From positions 4,199,380-4,263,379 of the forward strand of contig AP018180.1 in the NCBI GenBank assembly GCA_002368155.1: a stretch of 64,000 nucleotides of DNA, read 5' to 3'. The position numbers and the translations under genes were made by a program. Position 1 is the first letter of the stretch, and every line of letters begins with the position of its first letter. This DNA is from Nostoc carneum NIES-2107. Its GTDB lineage: Bacteria > Cyanobacteriota > Cyanobacteriia > Cyanobacteriales > Nostocaceae. Positions 30,436 through 54,365 of this stretch are shown in pieces. The notes below the pieces were generated by a model. It saw only the letters and a list, made by a program, of their open reading frames with translations, was not told the DNA's origin and did no database searches.

Positions 30436-30501
30436 GTTTGATTAGCTCAGTGGTAGAGCAGCCGAAGAGGTCGGACGTAGGTTCGAGTCCTACATCAAAC
30501 A
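30436..30501 (+). tRNA. tRNA-like pseudogene: intact acceptor/D/T arms but a truncated anticodon arm (4-bp stem, 5-nt loop) and almost no variable loop
   Basis: Folded by hand. Acceptor GTTTGAT/ATCAAAC, D-arm GCTC-AGTGGTA-GAGC, T-arm GTAGG-TTCGAGT-CCTAC. Only 16 nt between D and T arms, against 21-22 expected. No CCA encoded. Confidence 0.4.
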
Positions 30502-44347: not shown

Positions 44348-45139
44348 ATGTTACTTAGTAGAGAAAAAGCCGAATTCTATTTAACAGACATAGAAACACC
44401 ACTGGGACAAATAATTAACTTAACTATTGCCGGATTGGTTCTTTTGTCTTCAGGAATTTTCGTAGCAGAAACTTATAATATTCCTGATTCTCTCCGGTGC
44501 CAATTACAAATTATTGATACTGCTATATTTATAGTTTTTGCAGTTGAATATGCTATTCGTCTATGGAGTGCGGAAAATAAAGTTAGGTACTTTTTCAGCT
44601 TATATTCCATTATCGACTTAATAGCTATCTTGCCATTTTTTCTAGGAGCCGTAGATTTAAGCTTTATTCGTTTATTAAGATGGTTTCGGATTTTAAGACT
44701 AATCAGGTTTATCGATAAAAGATTTTTCTTTGGTAGTGTGAGTACTGAAGATGGTGTCATATTCGCGCGAATATTATTTACCTTATTTGCGATTATATTT
44801 GTTTACTCTGGCTTAATTTATCAAGTTGAACATCCTGTTAATCCCCAAGGTTTTGCCACTTTTTTAGATGCATTGTATTTTTCGATTGTCACTATGACAA
44901 CTGTAGGTTTTGGGGATGTAACACCCGCTTCTGAATTAGGCCGCTGGTTAACAGTATTGATGATTTTGACAGGTATTGCCCTAATTCCTTGGCAAGTTGG
45001 TGATTTAATTAAGCGATTAGTAAAAACTGCAAACCAAATAGAAGCAAATTGTTCTGGGTGCGGTTTGGCTTACCACGATGCGGATGCTGGGTTTTGTAAA
45101 AGATGCGGAACCAAGTTACCTGTGATGAGGGCTGATTAA
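44348..45139 (+). CDS. Ion-transport family K+ channel (voltage-sensor-like S4 plus a pore with a TTVGFGD filter) and a C-terminal zinc-ribbon
   Basis: S4-like RLLRWFRILRLIRF; selectivity filter TMTTVGFGDV; C-terminal CSGCG...CKRCG. Confidence 0.7.
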   Translation: MLLSREKAEFYLTDIETPLGQIINLTIAGLVLLSSGIFVAETYNIPDSLRCQLQIIDTAIFIVFAVEYAIRLWSAENKVRYFFSLYSIIDLIAILPFFLGAVDLSFIRLLRWFRILRLIRFIDKRFFFGSVSTEDGVIFARILFTLFAIIFVYSGLIYQVEHPVNPQGFATFLDALYFSIVTMTTVGFGDVTPASELGRWLTVLMILTGIALIPWQVGDLIKRLVKTANQIEANCSGCGLAYHDADAGFCKRCGTKLPVMRAD

Positions 45140-45392
45140 TTTGTGTTTGGGGATTGGGGTTTTTCATTCGTCAAAAGTCAAAAGTCAAAATAGCAGTGGT
45201 AGGGTGCGTTATGGAGGAAAACCTGACGCACCGTTGATATTAATATCAAAGTTTTCCGTAAACACGATAACTAGTGTTGTTTATGTATATGGGGCTAATA
45301 TCTCTAGTCCCTTCTGTTCTATAAATTCATGGGTATTCATAATTTTGAATACTCATAAAGACTAGTGGTGTGATGATTTGGAGTAAAACCTT

Positions 45393-46325
45393 ATGGAAGC
45401 CTTGCTACATAACCCAATTGCAGATATGTACGGGCCAAACTTCTTACTGTTGTATGGTATTGTCATTAGCTTGACACTTTTAGGTTGCTGGAAACTTGTA
45501 CAAGATCCGACAACAAATCAACCCTTACCTTTAATCCCTAGCGAACCAGATCCTTATGAAGTTGCTTACTTCCGTGAGGGAGCATTAGAAGTAGTAAAGG
45601 TAGCAATTTTGAGTTTAATTCAAAAGAATTATTTACAGATTACTGGAGAGAAAATTAGCCAAACCTTAGAGCATGGAGATGTATTGCAATTGCATCCTAT
45701 AGAGAGGGAAGTCTTTTTTAGCTATTCAACTACTCCAGAAGCAAAATCTCTCTGGTTAATAGCCTCGAAAGTACAATCATATTGCGATAATTTTGAAGAA
45801 AAACTACGCAATGAGCAACTATTATATGCTCAAGAATGGCAAAGATGGAATTATAAAGTTGGCTTAATTGCAGCCACAATTATTTGCAGTTTAGGTAGTT
45901 ATAAGCTCCTGATTGCCTTAGAGAATAACCATCATAATGTCAACCTGCTCATATATATGGCTGTCATATCGATAATGTGTATTTTATGGCTTAGCCGGAT
46001 GCGATCGCGTCTTAGCTATCGAGGACAAGCTTACCTCAAACAACTCCAAGATACATTTGCTCAATTGAAGACCAAGGCAAAGAATTCTAGCTTCCTTTCA
46101 GTATTTAATTACAACTTGCTAGTAGCACTCTTTGGCGTAGAAGCACTCGCTGGTACTGAATACGATTCATACTACAAAGTTTTCTATCCTGCTACATCTA
46201 GAACAAGTAGCCAAAGAAGTAATTCCTCTGATAGTGGTTGCAGTAGTGGAAGTTCCTGCGGTGGTGGGAGTTCCTGCGGTGGCGGTTGCGGCGGTGGCTG
46301 CGGTGGCTGCGGTGGTGGTGATTAA
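45393..46325 (+). CDS. TIGR04222-type polytopic membrane protein with a C-terminal Ser/Cys/Gly-rich tail; candidate substrate of the downstream DUF692 enzyme
   Basis: Several transmembrane helices. C-terminus SRTSSQRSNSSDSGCSSGSSCGGGSSCGGGCGGGCGGCGGGD. The stop lies 6 bp before the DUF692 gene start. Confidence 0.65.
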   Translation: MEALLHNPIADMYGPNFLLLYGIVISLTLLGCWKLVQDPTTNQPLPLIPSEPDPYEVAYFREGALEVVKVAILSLIQKNYLQITGEKISQTLEHGDVLQLHPIEREVFFSYSTTPEAKSLWLIASKVQSYCDNFEEKLRNEQLLYAQEWQRWNYKVGLIAATIICSLGSYKLLIALENNHHNVNLLIYMAVISIMCILWLSRMRSRLSYRGQAYLKQLQDTFAQLKTKAKNSSFLSVFNYNLLVALFGVEALAGTEYDSYYKVFYPATSRTSSQRSNSSDSGCSSGSSCGGGSSCGGGCGGGCGGCGGGD

Positions 46326-46331
46326 GAAATT

Positions 46332-47165
46332 ATGCTATCTCATCTCCCTAATTTAGGTGTGGGGTTAGGCTTTAGAGAGCTATTTAAAAGTGACTTGTTT
46401 CTCAATCGTCAGCCAGTAGACTTTTTGGAAATTGTTGCTGAACATTATTTAGATGCGCCAGTAGCAAAACAGCAGGAATTAGAATTGCTGGCGGCGCATT
46501 TTCCCCTAATTCCCCATGCAATTAATCTGTCTTTGGGTAGCGCTGAAGGTTTGGATAGAGATTATTTAGCTAAACTAGCAGAACTAATTAAGCAGCTTAA
46601 CCCGCCTTGGTGGAGTGAACATCTTAGTTTTACTAAAGCAGGGGGAATTGATATCGGACATTTATCACCGCTACCATATACCCAGGAAGCTGTGGAAGTA
46701 GTTTGTCGCAACATAGCTGAGGTACGTCGCTGGATTGATGTGCCATTAATACTGGAAAATATTACTTATATGGTGGCGCTTCCTGGTGCGGAGATGACAG
46801 AAGCCCAATTTTTAGCAGAAGTTGCAGAACGTGCTGATTGCGGGTTGCTTTTAGATGTGACGAATCTCTACACTAATGCTGTCAACCACGGTTATGATGT
46901 GCAGCAGTTTCTCCAACAATTACCACTAGAACGTATTGTACAGTTGCATTTCGTCGGCGGACATTGGCATGATGGCGTTTTGCTTGATAGCCATTCCCAC
47001 TCAACACCAGTAGAAATTTGGCAACTGATGGATGATGTTGTCGCCAAGTTTCCAGTTAAAGGAATTGTTCTCGAACGAGATGAAAATTTGCCAGCCTTTG
47101 CAGAATTAGTAGCAGAACTGCAACAAGCACGACATATCGCCAGGAGTCATGGTAAATGGGTTTAG
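46332..47165 (+). CDS. DUF692-family multinuclear non-heme iron oxidative enzyme (MNIO; MbnB/TglH-like), TIM-barrel xylose-isomerase-like fold
   Basis: Characteristic N-terminus LGVGLGFR....L......VDFLE...E.Y, ~277 aa. Downstream overlap with a DUF2063 gene. Confidence 0.8.
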   Translation: MLSHLPNLGVGLGFRELFKSDLFLNRQPVDFLEIVAEHYLDAPVAKQQELELLAAHFPLIPHAINLSLGSAEGLDRDYLAKLAELIKQLNPPWWSEHLSFTKAGGIDIGHLSPLPYTQEAVEVVCRNIAEVRRWIDVPLILENITYMVALPGAEMTEAQFLAEVAERADCGLLLDVTNLYTNAVNHGYDVQQFLQQLPLERIVQLHFVGGHWHDGVLLDSHSHSTPVEIWQLMDDVVAKFPVKGIVLERDENLPAFAELVAELQQARHIARSHGKWV

Positions 47166-47737
47166 CACAAACGCAGCAGGTTTTAGCCCAACTGTATACT
47201 AATACTGAATTTAGGAACAGTTTCTTTGTTAACCCAAAAGTCGTTGGTGCAGAATTGGGATTAAGCGATGCCGAAATAGAGAATTTATCTCAACTTGCTG
47301 CCTCACAAGTCAACCTATTTGCCAGTTCTCTTAAGTGGAAGCGATTAAATTTATTGTCAAAATTATTACCTCGTGCAACAAGCGCTCTGGGTAAAAACTT
47401 CAAAACTTTATTTTGGCAGTATGCAGAAACTTATATACCCCAGGGTATCAAGAAACATCGACAAGATGCGATCGCCTTTGCTGACTTTATCGTCAAAACC
47501 TCTCAGTTAGAAGAGTTAGAACCAATTTGGCTGAGTGATTTAGTACGCTACGAACAAGCCTGGCTATTAGCCGAGGAACTAAATCACGGCTTGAAAGTAT
47601 ATTGGTTTCGTTATCCCGTTGACAAACTAGGGACTAGTGACGAGAAAATTGCTCCGCAATTCACAATCGCTGTATGGTGGCGTTTCACGATGCGATCGCC
47701 TCTACATCATACTGTGCAATCGCTATTTATCAAGTAA
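47156..47737 (+). CDS. DUF2063-like partner protein of the MNIO (MbnC/TglI-like)
   Basis: Start overlaps the DUF692 stop (translational coupling). N-terminus TQQVLAQLYTNTEFRNSFFVNP resembles the DUF2063 'putative DNA-binding domain'. Confidence 0.6.
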   Translation: MGLAQTQQVLAQLYTNTEFRNSFFVNPKVVGAELGLSDAEIENLSQLAASQVNLFASSLKWKRLNLLSKLLPRATSALGKNFKTLFWQYAETYIPQGIKKHRQDAIAFADFIVKTSQLEELEPIWLSDLVRYEQAWLLAEELNHGLKVYWFRYPVDKLGTSDEKIAPQFTIAVWWRFTMRSPLHHTVQSLFIK

Positions 47738-48313
47738 AAATGCTGGAATCGGACATTTACTTTAATAAGTAGATTTTAAAGTCTTTATCAAAAATCAGTA
47801 AAACTTCTCTGATTTACACTGATTTTAGCAGCCGAAATATTTCGACTGCTAATTTTTTATTATTACTTTTACGTCGAAATATCATCTATCTAAAGCAGTA
47901 ATTATTCTGATGTTTTCGATTGATAATTGGTTTTTAATCTAAAGAGAATTGGTTAACTCATCACAGTATTTCCGAGAGACTTGGTTAGTTTAAGGAGAAA
48001 ACAAAAGTCTGAGAATTTGTTAAAAAATCGATTCTTTTAAATCTAAGCGCATCGTTAATTCGCTAAACATAGCGACAAGTAAAAGATTGTGTTTGCTAGT
48101 TATTTGATATTTATGGCGGAAAAACTAGAGCTAAAAAATAATTAATCGTTCAGCTTTATTCCCTGTAAATAACAGGAATCATGAAATTTATCATTTGGTT
48201 TACTTCATAAAAGAACCCAACTAAAAATACAGGAACAAGAGTAAAACTGCTGCAATAAATATTGTTAGCAATCAAATTTTATTTTTTTTACCGCTGCTCA
48301 CGAGGATAAGATA

Positions 48314-51300
48314 ATGGTGAAGAAAACAGTTTTTTTAACAAGCAATGCTGATGTTTGGGGAGGCTGGGAAAACGGTATTGAATATGAGGTTTCCGCCTTC
48401 GAGGGTAACGATAAACTGTACGGCTATATTGGCAATGACACTCTAGATGGTGGCGATGGTGACGACCAAATTTATAGCGGTGCTGGAGATGATATTTTAA
48501 TCGGTGGATTAGGCAACGATTTATTAGATGGTGGCGATGGCAATGACATTTTAGATGGTGGATTAGGTGACGATACACTGATTGGTGGCAACGGGGATGA
48601 TATCGTTTTTGGCGGTGATGGTAACGATCAGATTAGCGGTGGTGCTGGGAATGATATCCTCAACGGGGACAACGGTAATGATGTAATTAATGGTGGTGCA
48701 GGATACGACATCATCACTGGCGGTATGGGTAATGACGTGATTGATGGCGGCGATGGCAATGATACCATCTATGGTGGTGATGGGGATGATGGCTGGATAT
48801 TTGGTGGTTTAGGGAATGACAGCATTGATGGCGGAACGGGAAATGACACCATAGATGGTGGCGATGGTAATGATACCCTCACAGGTGGCGATGGTATTGA
48901 CCTACTCATGGGTAATAATGGCAATGATTCCATCTCTGGTGGTGCTGGGAATGACAACATCGATGGTGGAGCAGGCAATGATACCATCTCTGGTGGTGAA
49001 GGCGACGATAGAATTAATGGCGGCGCTGACAATGACACCATCTGGGGCGATATAGGCAATGACTACATTATCGGTGGACTAGGCTTTGACACCATTGCTG
49101 GCGGTATGGGTAATGACACCATTGATGGTGGTGATGGTAATGATGTGATTGCTGGTGGCGATGGTGATGACAGCTGGTTATTCGGTGGTTTAGGGAATGA
49201 CAGCATTGATGGTGGTGCAGGGAACGACACCCTAGATGGTGGCGATGGCGATGATACCTTGAGAGGCGGTGATGGGATTGATGTCCTCACAGGTAATAAT
49301 GGCAATGATGCCATTTCTGGTGGAGAAGGCGACGATAAAATTTATGGCGGCGCAGATAATGACATTATCTGGGGCGATGCTGGTAATGATTACATTAGCG
49401 GTGGTACAGGGAATGACACTATCTATGGCGGTATCGGCAATGATGTGATTGATGGTGGTGATGGCAATGACGTGATTGCGGCTGGTGATGGCGATGATGG
49501 CTGGTTATTTGGCGGTTTAGGGAATGACAACATTGATGGTGGTACAGGTAATGACACCTTAGATGGTGGCGAAGGTGATGATACCCTTACAGGTGGTGAT
49601 GGTATTGACCTACTCATGGGTAATAATGGCAATGATTCCATCTCCGGTGGTGCTGGCAATGACAACATTGATGGTGGAGCAGGTAATGATGTCATCTCTG
49701 GTGGTGAAGGCGACGATAAAATTAATGGCGGCGCTGATAATGACACCATTTGGGGTGATCTTGGTAATGATTACCTCAGCGGTGGTTTAGGTTTTGACAC
49801 CATTTATGGCGGTATCGGCAATGACACTATTGATGGTGGCGATGGCAATGATGTGATTGCTGGTGGCGATGGTGATGACAGCTGGTTATTCGGTGGTTTA
49901 GGGAATGACAGCATTGATGGTGGTTTAGGAAATGACACCCTAGATGGTGGCGATGGCGATGATACCTTGACAGGCGGTGATGGGATTGATGTCCTCACAG
50001 GTAATAATGGCAATGATTTCATTGCTGGTGGAGAAGGCGACGATAAAATTTATGGCGGCGCTGACAACGATACCATCTGGGGCGATGCTGGCAATGATTA
50101 CATTAGCGGTGGTACAGGGAATGACACCATATATGGTGGCATCGGTAATGACGTGATTGATGGTGGTGATGGCAATGATGTGATTGCTGGTGGTGATGGT
50201 GATGATAGCTGGTTGTTCGGTGGTTTAGGTGCAGACAACATCGATGGTGGTGTAGGGAACGATACCCTAGATGGCGGCGAAGGTGATGATACCCTCACAG
50301 GCGGTGATGGTAATGATCTACTCATGGGCAATAATGGCAACGATCTCCTCTCTGGTGGTACTGGCAATGACACCATCTATGGAGGAGACGGGAATGATAC
50401 CATTTGGGCTGATGCTGGCAATGATGTGATTGCTGGTGGTGCCGGAAATGACACCATTGGTGGTGGTGCTGGAATTGACAACATTGATGGTGGCGATGGT
50501 AATGATTTCATTTATGGTGGTGACGGTGATGATGTTTGGTTATTTGGTGGTTTAGGCGCAGACAGGATAGATGGTGGTGCAGGGAACGATACCCTAGATG
50601 GTGGAGAAGGTGATGATACTCTCACAGGTGGTGATGATAATGATGTTCTCCGGGGTGGAAATGGTAATGATGCCCTTTATGGTGAAGCTGGAAATGACAA
50701 CATTGAAGGTGGTTTTGGGCTAGATACCATTGGTGGTGGTGACGGCGACGATAAAATCAATGGCGGCGCTGATGACGATACCATCTGGGGCGATGCTGGT
50801 AATGATTACATTAGTGGTGGAACAGGTAATGACAACATTAGTGGTGGAACAGGTAATGACACCATTAGTGGCGGTGACGGCGATGATAAAATCAATGGTG
50901 GCGCTGATGACGATACCATCTGGGGCGATGCTGGCAATGATTACATTAACGGCGGTACTGGTAATGACATTCTTGCTGGAGGTGCAGGTAATGACATCAT
51001 CGATGGTGGTGATGGTAATGATGTAATTAATGGTGGCGAAGGTGATGATAGTTGGTTATTCGGTGGTTTAGGTAATGACAAAATAGATGGCGACTTGGGG
51101 AATGACACCATTGATGGTGGAGAAGGTGATGATACGCTCCTCGGTGGTGATGGTAATGATATCCTCACTGGTGGCAATGGTAATGATTCCCTCATTGGTG
51201 GTGCTGGGATTAACGTCCTTGATGGGGGTGAAGGCGATGATACCCTCATCGGTGGTGACAGTACTGATGTGATCAAAGCTGGGAATGGTAATGACATCAT

Positions 51301-53086
51301 TGATGGTGGCGCTGGTAATGACATCATTAATGGTGGTGCTGGCAATGATTACCTTAAGGGTGGTAATGGTAGTGATACCCTTGATGGCGCTGGCGCAGCC
51401 ATCTTGAGCATTAACTCAATAGATACTCTAGTAGGTGGGTTAAATGCTGATATCTTTATCTTGGGTGACAGCCTCAAGAGTTACTACGATGATGAAGACG
51501 CTACCACTAACGGCGTAAAAGATTACGCTATCATCGACGATTTCAATCGTTTTGAAGATGTAATTCGCCTGCATGGTTCACTCGGTGAATATGTTGTTGG
51601 TGGCATTTCGGATCAATTGACAACTGTATTTAATACTAGTAATGCATCAGGTATTTATGTAGATACCGACAAAAATGGAAGCTGGAATGATACAGACGAA
51701 TTAATCGCAGTGGTGAAGAATTTAACTCCCGGTAAATTAGTGCTGAGTGGCGATTATTTTCAATACACCGATACACCAAATGCAACTGCTTGGCATCCCA
51801 GTAAAGATGCTGGCTGGGAACTAGTATTTAGCGATGAATTTAACGGTACAAGCCTATCTTTAGATAAGTGGAATACACGCTATACTCTGCAAAATTTATA
51901 TGGCGGTAGAAACAATCCCTGGAATCAGGAATTGCAATACTACGTTGGTGATAATGAAGTCATCAATGGCACAGTTTATGACGGGTTTGAATTTAAGAAT
52001 GGCACTGTCAGCATTGTTGGCAAAAAAGTTAGCACACCCATTACCGCTGCAATTGGTGAATTTGCCCTTGGTTTTGATGAGGTGAAAACATTCAATTACA
52101 CCTCCGGAATGCTTAACACTGAAAATAAAGAAGCATTCACCTATGGCTATATGGAAATTCGCGCTAAAGCACCTAGTGGACAAGGACTTTGGCCTGCCTT
52201 TTGGATGTTACCTTCTTCAGGAAAATGGCCCCCAGAAATTGATGTCATGGAGACAGTGGGGCAAAAAACAGACACTGTAATTAACTCGTTCCATTCTTTG
52301 GGTGCTGACGGTTTAAATAACGATACAGCATCTCAAAATTTCACTGGAGTTGATTTCTCTCAAGATTTCCATACCTATGGAGTTAAATGGGAAACAGACA
52401 AATTAACTTGGTACATCGATCAACACGCTGTATTTGAAACTAAAAATAATATTCCTGATGTACCAATGTACTTGTTAGCTAATCTGGCAATTGGTGGTAA
52501 ATTCCCCGGTTCTCCAGATGCAAGTACTCCCGCAATCAACAATTATGATATAGATTACGTTCGTGTTTACCAAGATGCATCGGGTAGCCTTTACGGTGGC
52601 TCTAACGATGATGTATTAGAAAAACAATTGGGCAGCATTTTTGGGTTATCAGGGAATGATGTGATCAAAGGCGGAATTGGCAATAACACCCTAGATGGTG
52701 GCGATGGCAATGATATCTTAATTGGCGTAAATACTACAGTTGCTCAACCTGGTGCTGGTGAAGTAGATACGTTAATAGGTGGTGCAGGTCAAGATAAATT
52801 CGTCTTAGGCGACAGTACCAAGTTCTATTATGACGATCGCAATAATTTAGTGACTGGTTTAGGCGGCTATGCTGTGATCAAAGATTTCAATGCAGCCCAA
52901 GATGTCATCCAGTTAAATGGTAAAGCTAGTGACTATGTACTTGGCGCAGTATCTTCTCTCAATGGTACGGGAATTTATCGCGATATTAACGGCGATCGCA
53001 CTCTCGGTTCCACAGATGAGTTAATTGCAGTCGTCCAAGGAGATACAGGATTGAATTTGACGCAGAATTCTTTCTTGTACGTTTAG
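48314..53086 (+). CDS. Giant secreted RTX (hemolysin-type calcium-binding repeat) protein with an embedded GH16 beta-glucanase (laminarinase-like) domain and additional C-terminal RTX repeats; probable T1SS substrate
   Basis: More than 100 GGxGxDxLxGG nonapeptide repeats. GH16 catalytic motif EIDVME (within [13 protein letters not shown]), plus WPAFWML. Confidence 0.8.
48420..51400. repeat. Intragenic tandem array of RTX nonapeptide units organised into higher-order repeats of roughly 350-380 bp (~120 aa); about 8 copies
   Basis: The block [48 protein letters not shown] recurs with near identity at the DNA level. Confidence 0.8.
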
Positions 53087-53087
53087 G

Positions 53088-53235
53088 TTGGGGATTGGGG
53101 ATTGGGGATTGGGGACTGGGGACTGGGGACTGGGGACTGGGGACTGGGGACTGGGGATTGGGGACTGGGGACTGGGAATGAAGGAGAAATGTCTATTACC
53201 AATTACCAATTACCCATTACCAATTACCAATTACC
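53088..53235. repeat. STRR block ((GGGGATT/GGGGACT)n ... (CCAATTA/CCCATTA)n)
   Basis: Tandem heptamers visible directly. Confidence 0.85.
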
Positions 53236-53333
53236 AATTACCCATTCCCCAAACTTTGTATAAATCGTGAACATCTGGCTGACAAAGAGCGACAATTATC
53301 TTGCTTTTGTTAATGTCACATAAATAAATAACA

Positions 53334-54365
53334 ATGAAGTTCAGCGAAATTGTCAGCCGATTTGGTGATATTGTTACTGACCACAGCCTCAACAGCAACC
53401 CCAACAGCGATCCAGAGATTTCAGGGTTAGCATCTATTGATGAAGCGAATAGTAGCACTCTTAGCTATATAGAAGGGCCAAAATTCTTTTCTTGGGTGGG
53501 TAAAACTAATGCTGGTGCGTTGATTTTACCCGAGGACAAAACCTTACAGGCGCAAGCACAAGAACGGAATATTGTTTGGGTAGCCACCAAAGAACCGCGC
53601 TTGTTGTTTGCTAAAGCGATCGCAGTTTATTATCAACCATACCGCCCCAGCCCGGAAATTCATCCTACAGCGGTAATTGACCCCACCGCCGAAATTGGTA
53701 GTGATGTTTACATTGGCCCCCATGTAGTCATTCAGCAGCGAGTAAAAATTGGCAATGGTGCGATTATTCACCCAAATGTCGTCATTTATCCCGATGTCAC
53801 CATTGGCGATCGCACTACCTTACACGCTAACTGTACCATCCACGAACGCAGCCAAATTGGTGCAGATTGTTTTATTCATAGCGGTGTCGTCATTGGTGCT
53901 GAAGGGTTTGGCTATGTACCTACCCGCACTGGTTGGGTAAAAATGCAACAATCCGGCTACACTGTTTTAGAAGACCGCGTAGAAGTTGGTTCTAACAGTG
54001 CCATTGACCGCCCCGCAGTGGGAGAAACTAGGATAGGTCACGATACAATCATTGATAACTTAGTGCAAATTGGTCACGGTTGCAAAATTGGCTATGGTTG
54101 CGCGATCGCTGGGCAAGCTGGAATGGCTGGTGGCGTACAAATTGGTAATCGCGTCATCCTAGCTGGACAAACTGGAATCGCCAATCAAGTCAAAATTGGA
54201 GACGGTGCGATCGCATCAGCGCAAGCAGGAGTTCATAATGATGTTGCACCAGGAGAAATTGTCTCTGGTACTCCCGCCATTCCCCACAAACTATATCTCA
54301 AGGTATGTGCGATTTATAATCGACTACCAGAAATGTATAAAGCGCTGAAGCAATTTCAACGTTAA
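53334..54365 (+). CDS. lpxD: UDP-3-O-(3-hydroxyacyl)glucosamine N-acyltransferase
   Basis: N-terminal LpxD domain plus a long left-handed beta-helix (IGDRTTLHANCTI, IGADCFIHSGVVIG, IGHGCKIGYGCAIAG). Confidence 0.85.
   Translation: MKFSEIVSRFGDIVTDHSLNSNPNSDPEISGLASIDEANSSTLSYIEGPKFFSWVGKTNAGALILPEDKTLQAQAQERNIVWVATKEPRLLFAKAIAVYYQPYRPSPEIHPTAVIDPTAEIGSDVYIGPHVVIQQRVKIGNGAIIHPNVVIYPDVTIGDRTTLHANCTIHERSQIGADCFIHSGVVIGAEGFGYVPTRTGWVKMQQSGYTVLEDRVEVGSNSAIDRPAVGETRIGHDTIIDNLVQIGHGCKIGYGCAIAGQAGMAGGVQIGNRVILAGQTGIANQVKIGDGAIASAQAGVHNDVAPGEIVSGTPAIPHKLYLKVCAIYNRLPEMYKALKQFQR

Follow-up and report, generated by a model that had tools for sequence, protein, structure and literature searches.

To our knowledge, all characterised multinuclear non-heme iron oxidative enzymes (MNIOs; DUF692) act on small peptide or small-protein precursors. 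Among them, BufB, HvfB, FonB and the gonococcal enzyme convert Cys residues lying in Gly-flanked repeats into copper-binding 5-thiooxazoles, the products being named "captophorins" (PMC13097082). An in silico survey (PMC12452194; Microbial Genomics 2025, preprint January 2025) considered more than 1,000 Cys proteins that have no signal peptide and whose genes precede an MNIO gene; 40% of them were TIGR04222 proteins, in clusters that have no DUF2063 genes, carry PME-type 2 partners and contain MNIOs adjoining the bufferin enzymes. In the same survey the C-terminal Cys-rich segment of the TIGR04222 proteins "might be modified", and "bona fide proteins" were raised as possible MNIO substrates. 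Here we analyze a 64,000-nt stretch of the Nostoc carneum NIES-2107 genome (contig AP018180.1; hereafter the window), which holds a new cyanobacterial member of these already predicted TIGR04222-MNIO-PME-type 2 clusters. It consists of three open reading frames (ORFs), which we call ORF A, ORF B and ORF C. We lean towards a reading in which the MNIO, ORF B, and its partner, ORF C, oxidatively modify the Cys residues of the Gly/Ser-spaced tail of ORF A, the three genes forming a single module. Taken by itself, the assignment of this tail as the MNIO substrate is probable from sequence comparison. The features of the module are as follows.

45393-46325, + strand: ORF A, the putative substrate, a TIGR04222-domain polytopic membrane protein of 310 aa
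46239-46322, + strand: Cys-rich tail core of ORF A (aa 283-310, CSSGSSCGGGSSCGGGCGGGCGGCGGGD), read from the sequence
46332-47165, + strand: ORF B (NIES2107_34350), an MNIO (DUF692) of 277 aa
47156-47737, + strand: ORF C (NIES2107_34360), a 'PME-type 2' MNIO partner of 193 aa

ORF B starts 6 nt after the stop of ORF A, and ORF C overlaps the stop of ORF B by 10 nt, a spacing that leaves room for no further gene among the three. An earlier note on this DNA had drawn the same ORFs and layout, and its coordinates, 6-nt gap and overlap were all exact. ORF B and ORF C correspond by identity to BAY31574.1 and BAY31575.1, both deposited as "hypothetical protein". The exact ORF A sequence is absent from a collection of 15 billion proteins in which ORF B and ORF C of the same genome are present; ORF A may be uncalled, or given another start, in the deposited annotation.

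Conservation of the module and of the Cys tail

A profile of ORF C was scanned across one genome per GTDB species, which gave 65 loci. An ORF B relative lies directly upstream of ORF C in 61 of the 65, and at least one TIGR04222 gene lies upstream of ORF B in 56 (71 copies). Whenever present, the genes are co-oriented and follow the order A-B-C. Of the 60 loci with enough upstream contig to tell, about 57 show this arrangement; the family accordingly belongs to the TIGR04222-MNIO cluster type. Five loci without ORF A stop at the contig edge. Other departures are a transposase-like ORF where ORF A would be (locus L032, 3860-5100), an A(1-21)::C(14-190) fusion with loss of ORF B (L035, 5596-6186), a single deletion that takes the ORF A tail together with the N-terminus of ORF B (L006, 5040-6010, Mojavia pulchra), and a solitary, distant ORF C-like gene (L065). 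The module spans at least three phyla. Its carriers include many Nostocales, Aliterella, Xenococcaceae, several Acidobacteriota (Pyrinomonadaceae, Blastocatellia), a Chloroflexia-labelled metagenome-assembled genome (MAG) and a Cytophagaceae MAG (Cytophagales). Synteny of the Cys-tailed protein with the MNIO, which the earlier note had proposed as a check of its reading, is therefore conserved across phyla. In about 13 loci two or three copies of ORF A stand in tandem; in L009 the second copy is tail-less and directly upstream of ORF B.

ORF A ends in ...SGCSSGSSCGGGSSCGGGCGGGCGGCGGGD, its S/G/C tail covering residues 257-310. Six Cys residues (283, 289, 295, 299, 303 and 306) lie in the tail core and are the proposed sites of MNIO modification. 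Because the same S/G-spaced Cys tail ends 119 of the 120 best ORF A database homologues and is kept in 68 of the 71 ORF A copies from the loci of related genomes (the exceptions being truncated or fragmented), it is no chance low-complexity read-through. The number of tail Cys per copy ranges from 3 to 11 (mean 6.2), approximately 99% of them have G or S on either side, and their spacing is mostly 2-5 residues. At the DNA level the tail is an imperfect 9/12/18-nt repeat whose length and Ser/Gly content drift while the Cys are retained. A terminal CGGGCGGCGG-type motif recurs in the tails of Nostocales, and the terminus ...CGGGCGGCGGGD is identical in the Acidobacteriota homologue at L057. Just before the tail sits a conserved segment, LAGTxYDxY, the tail itself being hypervariable. 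A sorting signal of the PEP-CTERM or MYXO-CTERM style was ruled out for ORF A, as the motif is followed by no transmembrane (TM) helix and basic cluster.

No further gene is conserved with the trio across the 65 loci. The downstream genes vary, and the upstream K+ channel, deaminase, response regulator and kinase genes are found in Nostocales only (25-34 loci). We found no conserved small ORF, protease or transporter/exporter around the module, either in the window or in the 65 loci, as the earlier note had remarked when it pointed to the lack of a leader-peptide, protease or exporter gene. These data bear on the possibility that ORF A is a giant membrane-anchored leader, and that its modified tail is cleaved and secreted as a small metallophore, i.e., the product of a conventional ribosomally made, post-translationally modified peptide (RiPP) pathway with an unusual leader. 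The conserved LAGTxYDxY segment followed by a hypervariable 'core' would fit such a precursor, the tandem copies of ORF A resemble multiple precursor genes, and methanobactins and captophorins are released peptides (PMC13097082). But a protease/exporter is conserved with the module in none of the 65 loci, and the TIGR04222 domain of 250 aa is conserved far beyond the need of a leader and also occurs without an MNIO, so we regard this alternative as quite improbable.

Since the module recurs, the tandem ORF A copies are nearly always Cys-tailed and nothing else is conserved with them, the tail is the likeliest MNIO substrate. The suggestion of the earlier note that a Cys-Gly tail encoded in cis is modified gains support from the synteny across phyla, the tandem copies and the joint decay of tail and enzyme. 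An unlikely alternative is that ORF A is not a substrate and its tail works unmodified, in metallothionein-like metal binding or as a flexible linker, while ORF B and ORF C act on an unrecognised peptide or protein whose gene lies elsewhere; in that case ORF A would play an accessory part in the membrane, like DoxX in bufferin operons. Against this, no other Cys-containing ORF is conserved in the module, where ORF C is Cys-free and the gaps are 6 nt and -10 nt, the tail Cys are kept across phyla in the G/S-C-G/S context preferred by related MNIOs, and the ORF A tail and ORF B were lost jointly in L006. An unmodified tail would agree better with the relation of ORF A to DUF2207_C membrane proteins, with the tail-less ORF A paralogue directly upstream of ORF B in some loci (e.g., the second copy of L009), and with the fact that TIGR04222 is widespread without MNIOs and over a quarter of its members have no Cys (PMC12452194).

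Expanded modules occur in Acidobacteriota (L057 (1850-6573), L058, L060, L061 and L062). In these a class I S-adenosylmethionine (SAM) methyltransferase separates ORF A from ORF B, and ORF B is separated from ORF C by a zinc-ribbon membrane protein, an HbpS-like protein (haem-degrading family) or both, while the terminus ...CGGGCGGCGGGD of ORF A is unchanged. These interposed genes may supply extra tailoring or redox components.

The MNIO and its partner

ORF B matches the Pfam family PF05114 (MbnB_TglH_ChrH) with 305.9 bits against a cutoff of 25, over profile positions 1-262 of 263, and has the N-terminal LGVGLGFR motif, so that its earlier assignment to DUF692 stands. Of the NCBIfam models, BufB (248 bits) and HvfB (223) fit it best, with ApyH (127), ChrH (69) and MbnB (49) well behind. 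In the PDB, the HvfB-like MNIO 3bww (E=2e-40, 142 bits) scores ahead of TglH (E=2e-31, 112 bits) and MbnB (E=1e-9). By these sequence comparisons ORF B is the nearest neighbour of the BufB and HvfB families and not a member of either. Its iron-site residues align with those of 3bww, TglH and MbnB, and the metal-site motifs conserved in MNIOs are all present (H62, H97, E142, D175-x-x-N178, H206, D219-x-H221 and E248), in a spacing that presumably agrees with the ligand set of MbnB. The MNIO metal site is intact. In HvfB, N175, D242 and H244, the counterparts of N178, D219 and H221 of ORF B, are essential for activity (bioRxiv 10.64898/2026.07.17.739211).

ORF C was more difficult to place. The earlier note had taken it for a DUF2063 protein and expected a match to PF09836, but ORF C has no Pfam match even at E<=10, and none of the 28 members of its family (ORF C and 27 relatives) matches DUF2063 at E<=1. 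A sub-threshold hidden Markov model (HMM) score, which that note had named as evidence against itself, was hence obtained for DUF2063 and not for DUF692. LigA and NHase_alpha were rejected for the ORF C family, as they gave only sub-threshold Pfam matches to the N-terminal helices. A precomputed label for ORF C, PF26136 ("SCO6045-like C-terminal domain"), was not reproducible with the local Pfam copy, and a literature search for "SCO6045" returned one incidental mention, in an RNA-seq table. HMMER searches of the PDB with the ORF C sequence and with the family profile gave no significant match. Fold comparison alone linked ORF C to known structures, the best full-length structural match being TglI. 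In ORF C, which contains no Cys, a helical domain resembling DUF2063 precedes what is left of an RRE-like domain, namely three strands. A PME-type 1 partner has the DUF2063 HMM signature and a full-length RRE-type domain (about 250-260 aa), whereas ORF C has 193 aa and only three beta-strands after the helical domain. PME-type 2 partners are defined as proteins encoded after the MNIO gene that have no DUF2063 signature and structurally resemble NGO1945 (3dee) and TglI (8hi7), and their RRE domain is often truncated (PMC12452194). ORF C has these properties and is therefore a 'PME-type 2' protein, i.e., a relative of the DUF2063/TglI partners by structure only. Its family comprises 1,683 representative clusters at 50% identity (E<=1e-3).

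Family and membrane topology of ORF A

The assignment of ORF A to TIGR04222, also made in the earlier note, is confirmed by the NCBIfam model (83.3 bits, cutoff 43, residues 20-253). Residues 70-219 match the Pfam family DUF2207_C weakly (26.5 bits, under the cutoff of 33), and many of the more than 3,000 ORF A homologues bear a precomputed DUF2207_C annotation. Hydropathy and charge analysis gave three strong hydrophobic segments (~17-36, ~156-176 and ~183-203) and a weaker fourth (~233-254), whose mean best 19-aa Kyte-Doolittle score is 1.49 compared with 1.9-2.5 for the other three. In 42 ORF A homologues, K/R are nearly absent at the N-terminus, and the loop 203-232 averages 6.5 K/R versus 1.5 D/E; by the positive-inside rule, this distribution makes both the loop and the ~120-aa domain cytoplasmic. 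The AlphaFold2 model (mean pLDDT, i.e., predicted local distance difference test score, 82) has a disordered tail, with residues 272-306 below 50. In the same model segment 4 appears as short kinked helices (237-247 and 249-252), so that the tail may lie on either side of the membrane. A periplasmic tail has been favoured for TIGR04222 proteins (PMC12452194). ORF A has no Sec signal peptide of the kind found in captophorin/bufferin precursors: it has no K/R n-region, and its N-terminus enters TM1 directly. ORF B and ORF C have no signal peptide by inspection, and they should therefore be cytoplasmic.

Proposed modification of the tail

On our reading of the module, ORF A would insert through TM1-3, so that both its ~120-aa domain and its K/R-rich loop (aa 203-232) face the cytoplasm. 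A cytoplasmic heterodimer of ORF B and ORF C would then dock on ORF A, by analogy with TglHI, MbnBC, BufBC and HvfBC, and the LAGTxYDxY segment ahead of the tail may be the docking site. With its Fe(II)/Fe(III) cluster and O2, ORF B would convert each Cys in G/S-C-G/S context, up to six. The product would most probably be 5-thiooxazole, with a change of -4 Da per Cys. Among the chemistries listed in the earlier note, we prefer this one, as 5-thiooxazole is what the characterised close relatives BufB, HvfB and FonB all make; the choice is drawn by analogy and is a serious possibility that we hold at somewhat less than even chances. The modified tail would remain on the membrane protein and either move to the periplasm or thylakoid lumen upon insertion of segment 4 or stay at the cytoplasmic face. 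At either site it could chelate Cu or another soft metal while tethered to the membrane. Such an unprocessed tail of a polytopic membrane protein, bearing several Cys-derived metal-binding heterocycles at the periplasmic or thylakoid-lumen face, would constitute a membrane-tethered metallophore, an outcome we put forward tentatively.

Several points weigh against this reading. Our literature search found no experimental study of TIGR04222 proteins. One third of TIGR04222-containing genomes have no MNIO, and the C-proximal Cys are missing from more than a quarter of the proteins (PMC12452194); the membrane domain, being so often found without MNIO or Cys, therefore has a function of its own. 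By the positive-inside rule the tail is outside only if the moderately hydrophobic segment 4 crosses the membrane, and if it is outside, the cytoplasmic enzyme would have to act ahead of tail translocation. Modification in that order would parallel the modification of Sec-dependent bufferin precursors before export. There is no copper-related gene near the module, and we consider a copper-related function doubtful. ORF B falls under the equivalog cutoffs of both BufB (NF050167, 248 vs 310) and HvfB (NF003818, 223 vs 360), and its chemistry could therefore differ. ORF C is a partner of PME-type 2, as is TglI, and the enzyme that works with TglI performs Cys beta-carbon excision; the partner type so far tied to thiooxazole formation is PME-type 1 (PMC13097082).

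The last two points lead to a further alternative, to which we give a small chance, namely that the tail is the substrate and that the chemistry is another one: MbnB-like formation of oxazolone-thioamide, TglH-like excision of the beta-carbon from Cys at or close to the C-terminus, or some new reaction. In addition to the resemblance of ORF C to TglI and the sub-cutoff scores of ORF B, the SAM methyltransferase in the acidobacterial modules hints at more tailoring. However, by the bit scores given above ORF B is far closer to BufB and HvfB, and to 3bww, than to TglH, ApyH, ChrH or MbnB, and TIGR04222-linked MNIOs have been placed next to the bufferin enzymes (PMC12452194).

If modification of the ORF A tail is true, the module would be the first experimentally accessible case in which the MNIOs, a RiPP enzyme family, mature a full-size membrane protein. 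With the modified tail at the periplasmic or thylakoid-lumen face, a cytoplasmic enzyme would moreover have to act on a C-terminal tail before it crosses the membrane. It would extend RiPP-type chemistry to ordinary proteins and provide a new kind of membrane-anchored metal ligand. Cyanobacteria must route copper to the thylakoid lumen, and a membrane-anchored ligand in these organisms could bear on metal homeostasis. As a minimal three-gene system the Nostoc locus should express easily, which makes the published hypothesis directly testable. Because that hypothesis is already in print, the value of the locus is that of a well-defined test case rather than a discovery.

Genomic surroundings

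A K+ channel gene lies upstream of ORF A on the same strand.

44348-45139, + strand: homologue of voltage-gated K+ channels (Ion_trans, Ion_trans_2) whose C-terminal end, CxxC...CxxC, is zinc-ribbon-like

A K+ channel gene is found upstream of ORF A in 34 of the 65 loci, all of them from Nostocales. Its conservation within this order only rules it out as a part of the module, and the adjacency is probably a matter of vertical synteny and not of function. The 254 bp upstream of ORF A contain a perfect 16-bp palindrome, TTGATATTAATATCAA, at window positions 45234-45249. It may be a local operator; as a conserved operator it was ruled out, since only the closest relative, T. tenuis, has it too. 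A promoter/terminator scan over 45.1-48.4 kb gave nothing beyond shuffled expectation, and an Rfam search of the whole window returned tRNAs only and no regulatory RNA.

Downstream, a giant RTX/GH16 gene (48314-53086, + strand) codes for a protein of 1,590 aa that combines a GH16 glycoside hydrolase domain with 37 stretches of RTX nonapeptides. The segment that contains it (~5.6 kb, flanks about 47750-53330) is missing in Tolypothrix tenuis PCC 7101 and therefore looks like an insertion. In that strain LpxD (95% identical to window 53334-54365) directly follows ORF C at a distance of ~80 bp, which rules out the RTX/GH16 gene as a part of the module. The same segment accounts for the strong GC skew of 0.32-0.35 at 48-52 kb and for many spurious Pro/Ser-rich ORFs on the minus strand. 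Elsewhere in the window, Rfam detected a third tRNA at 30436-30501 (+ strand, 53 bits), just upstream of a tRNA-Met and tRNA-Leu pair, which was unreported by ARAGORN. The region ~4800-25700 (+ strand) contains ~20 co-oriented ORFs of 320-560 aa, with GC down to 0.34-0.38, possibly a large gene cluster of biosynthetic or polysaccharide function.

Comparison with known systems

The closest described systems are the clusters of the 2025 survey, which, like the Nostoc locus, have a Ser/Gly/Cys-tailed TIGR04222 protein encoded ahead of an MNIO and a partner recognisable only by structure. The earlier note had held the architecture to be distinct from known MNIO systems, and this overstated its novelty, as both the architecture and the proposal of tail modification are already in that paper (PMC12452194). 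The survey was dominated by Actinomycetota and its main text does not mention cyanobacteria, whereas the Nostoc locus is cyanobacterial. A partner was present in at least 10% of the surveyed clusters, compared with the compact A-B-C trio in the subfamily retrieved here through ORF C. The present analysis brought out the conserved terminal CGGGCGGCGG motif, the tandem ORF A copies and the joint decay. Our literature search on DUF692/UPF0276 with cyanobacterial names returned nothing relevant.

Weak likeness at residues 70-219 relates ORF A to the DUF2207 membrane proteins, and we know of no link between DUF2207 and MNIOs. A conventional RiPP cluster has a separate short leader-core precursor gene together with a protease/exporter, unlike the Nostoc module. 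The methanobactin system (MbnA/MbnB/MbnC) is similar in that an MNIO and its partner turn Cys into a copper-binding heterocycle and sulfur ligands. The TglH/TglI system of 3-thiaglutamate (pearlin) biosynthesis resembles the module in that TglI is the best structural match of ORF C and that an MNIO-partner heterodimer acts on a C-terminal Cys. It differs in its small peptide substrate, in the addition of the Cys by a PEARL enzyme and in the excision of the beta-carbon of one Cys, and ORF B is less like TglH (112 bits) than like the HvfB-like 3bww (142 bits). The bufferins/captophorins (BufABC, HvfABC and FonABC) have the enzymes closest to ORF B by HMM, and they share with the Nostoc module Cys beside Gly in short repeats and a partner of DUF2063-type fold, their products being Cu-binding 5-thiooxazoles. 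But their precursors are small and carry a Sec signal peptide, whereas ORF A is a 310-aa polytopic protein with none, and their partners are PME-type 1 (true DUF2063 with full RRE), often with DoxX present, whereas the Nostoc module has a short PME-type 2 partner and no DoxX.

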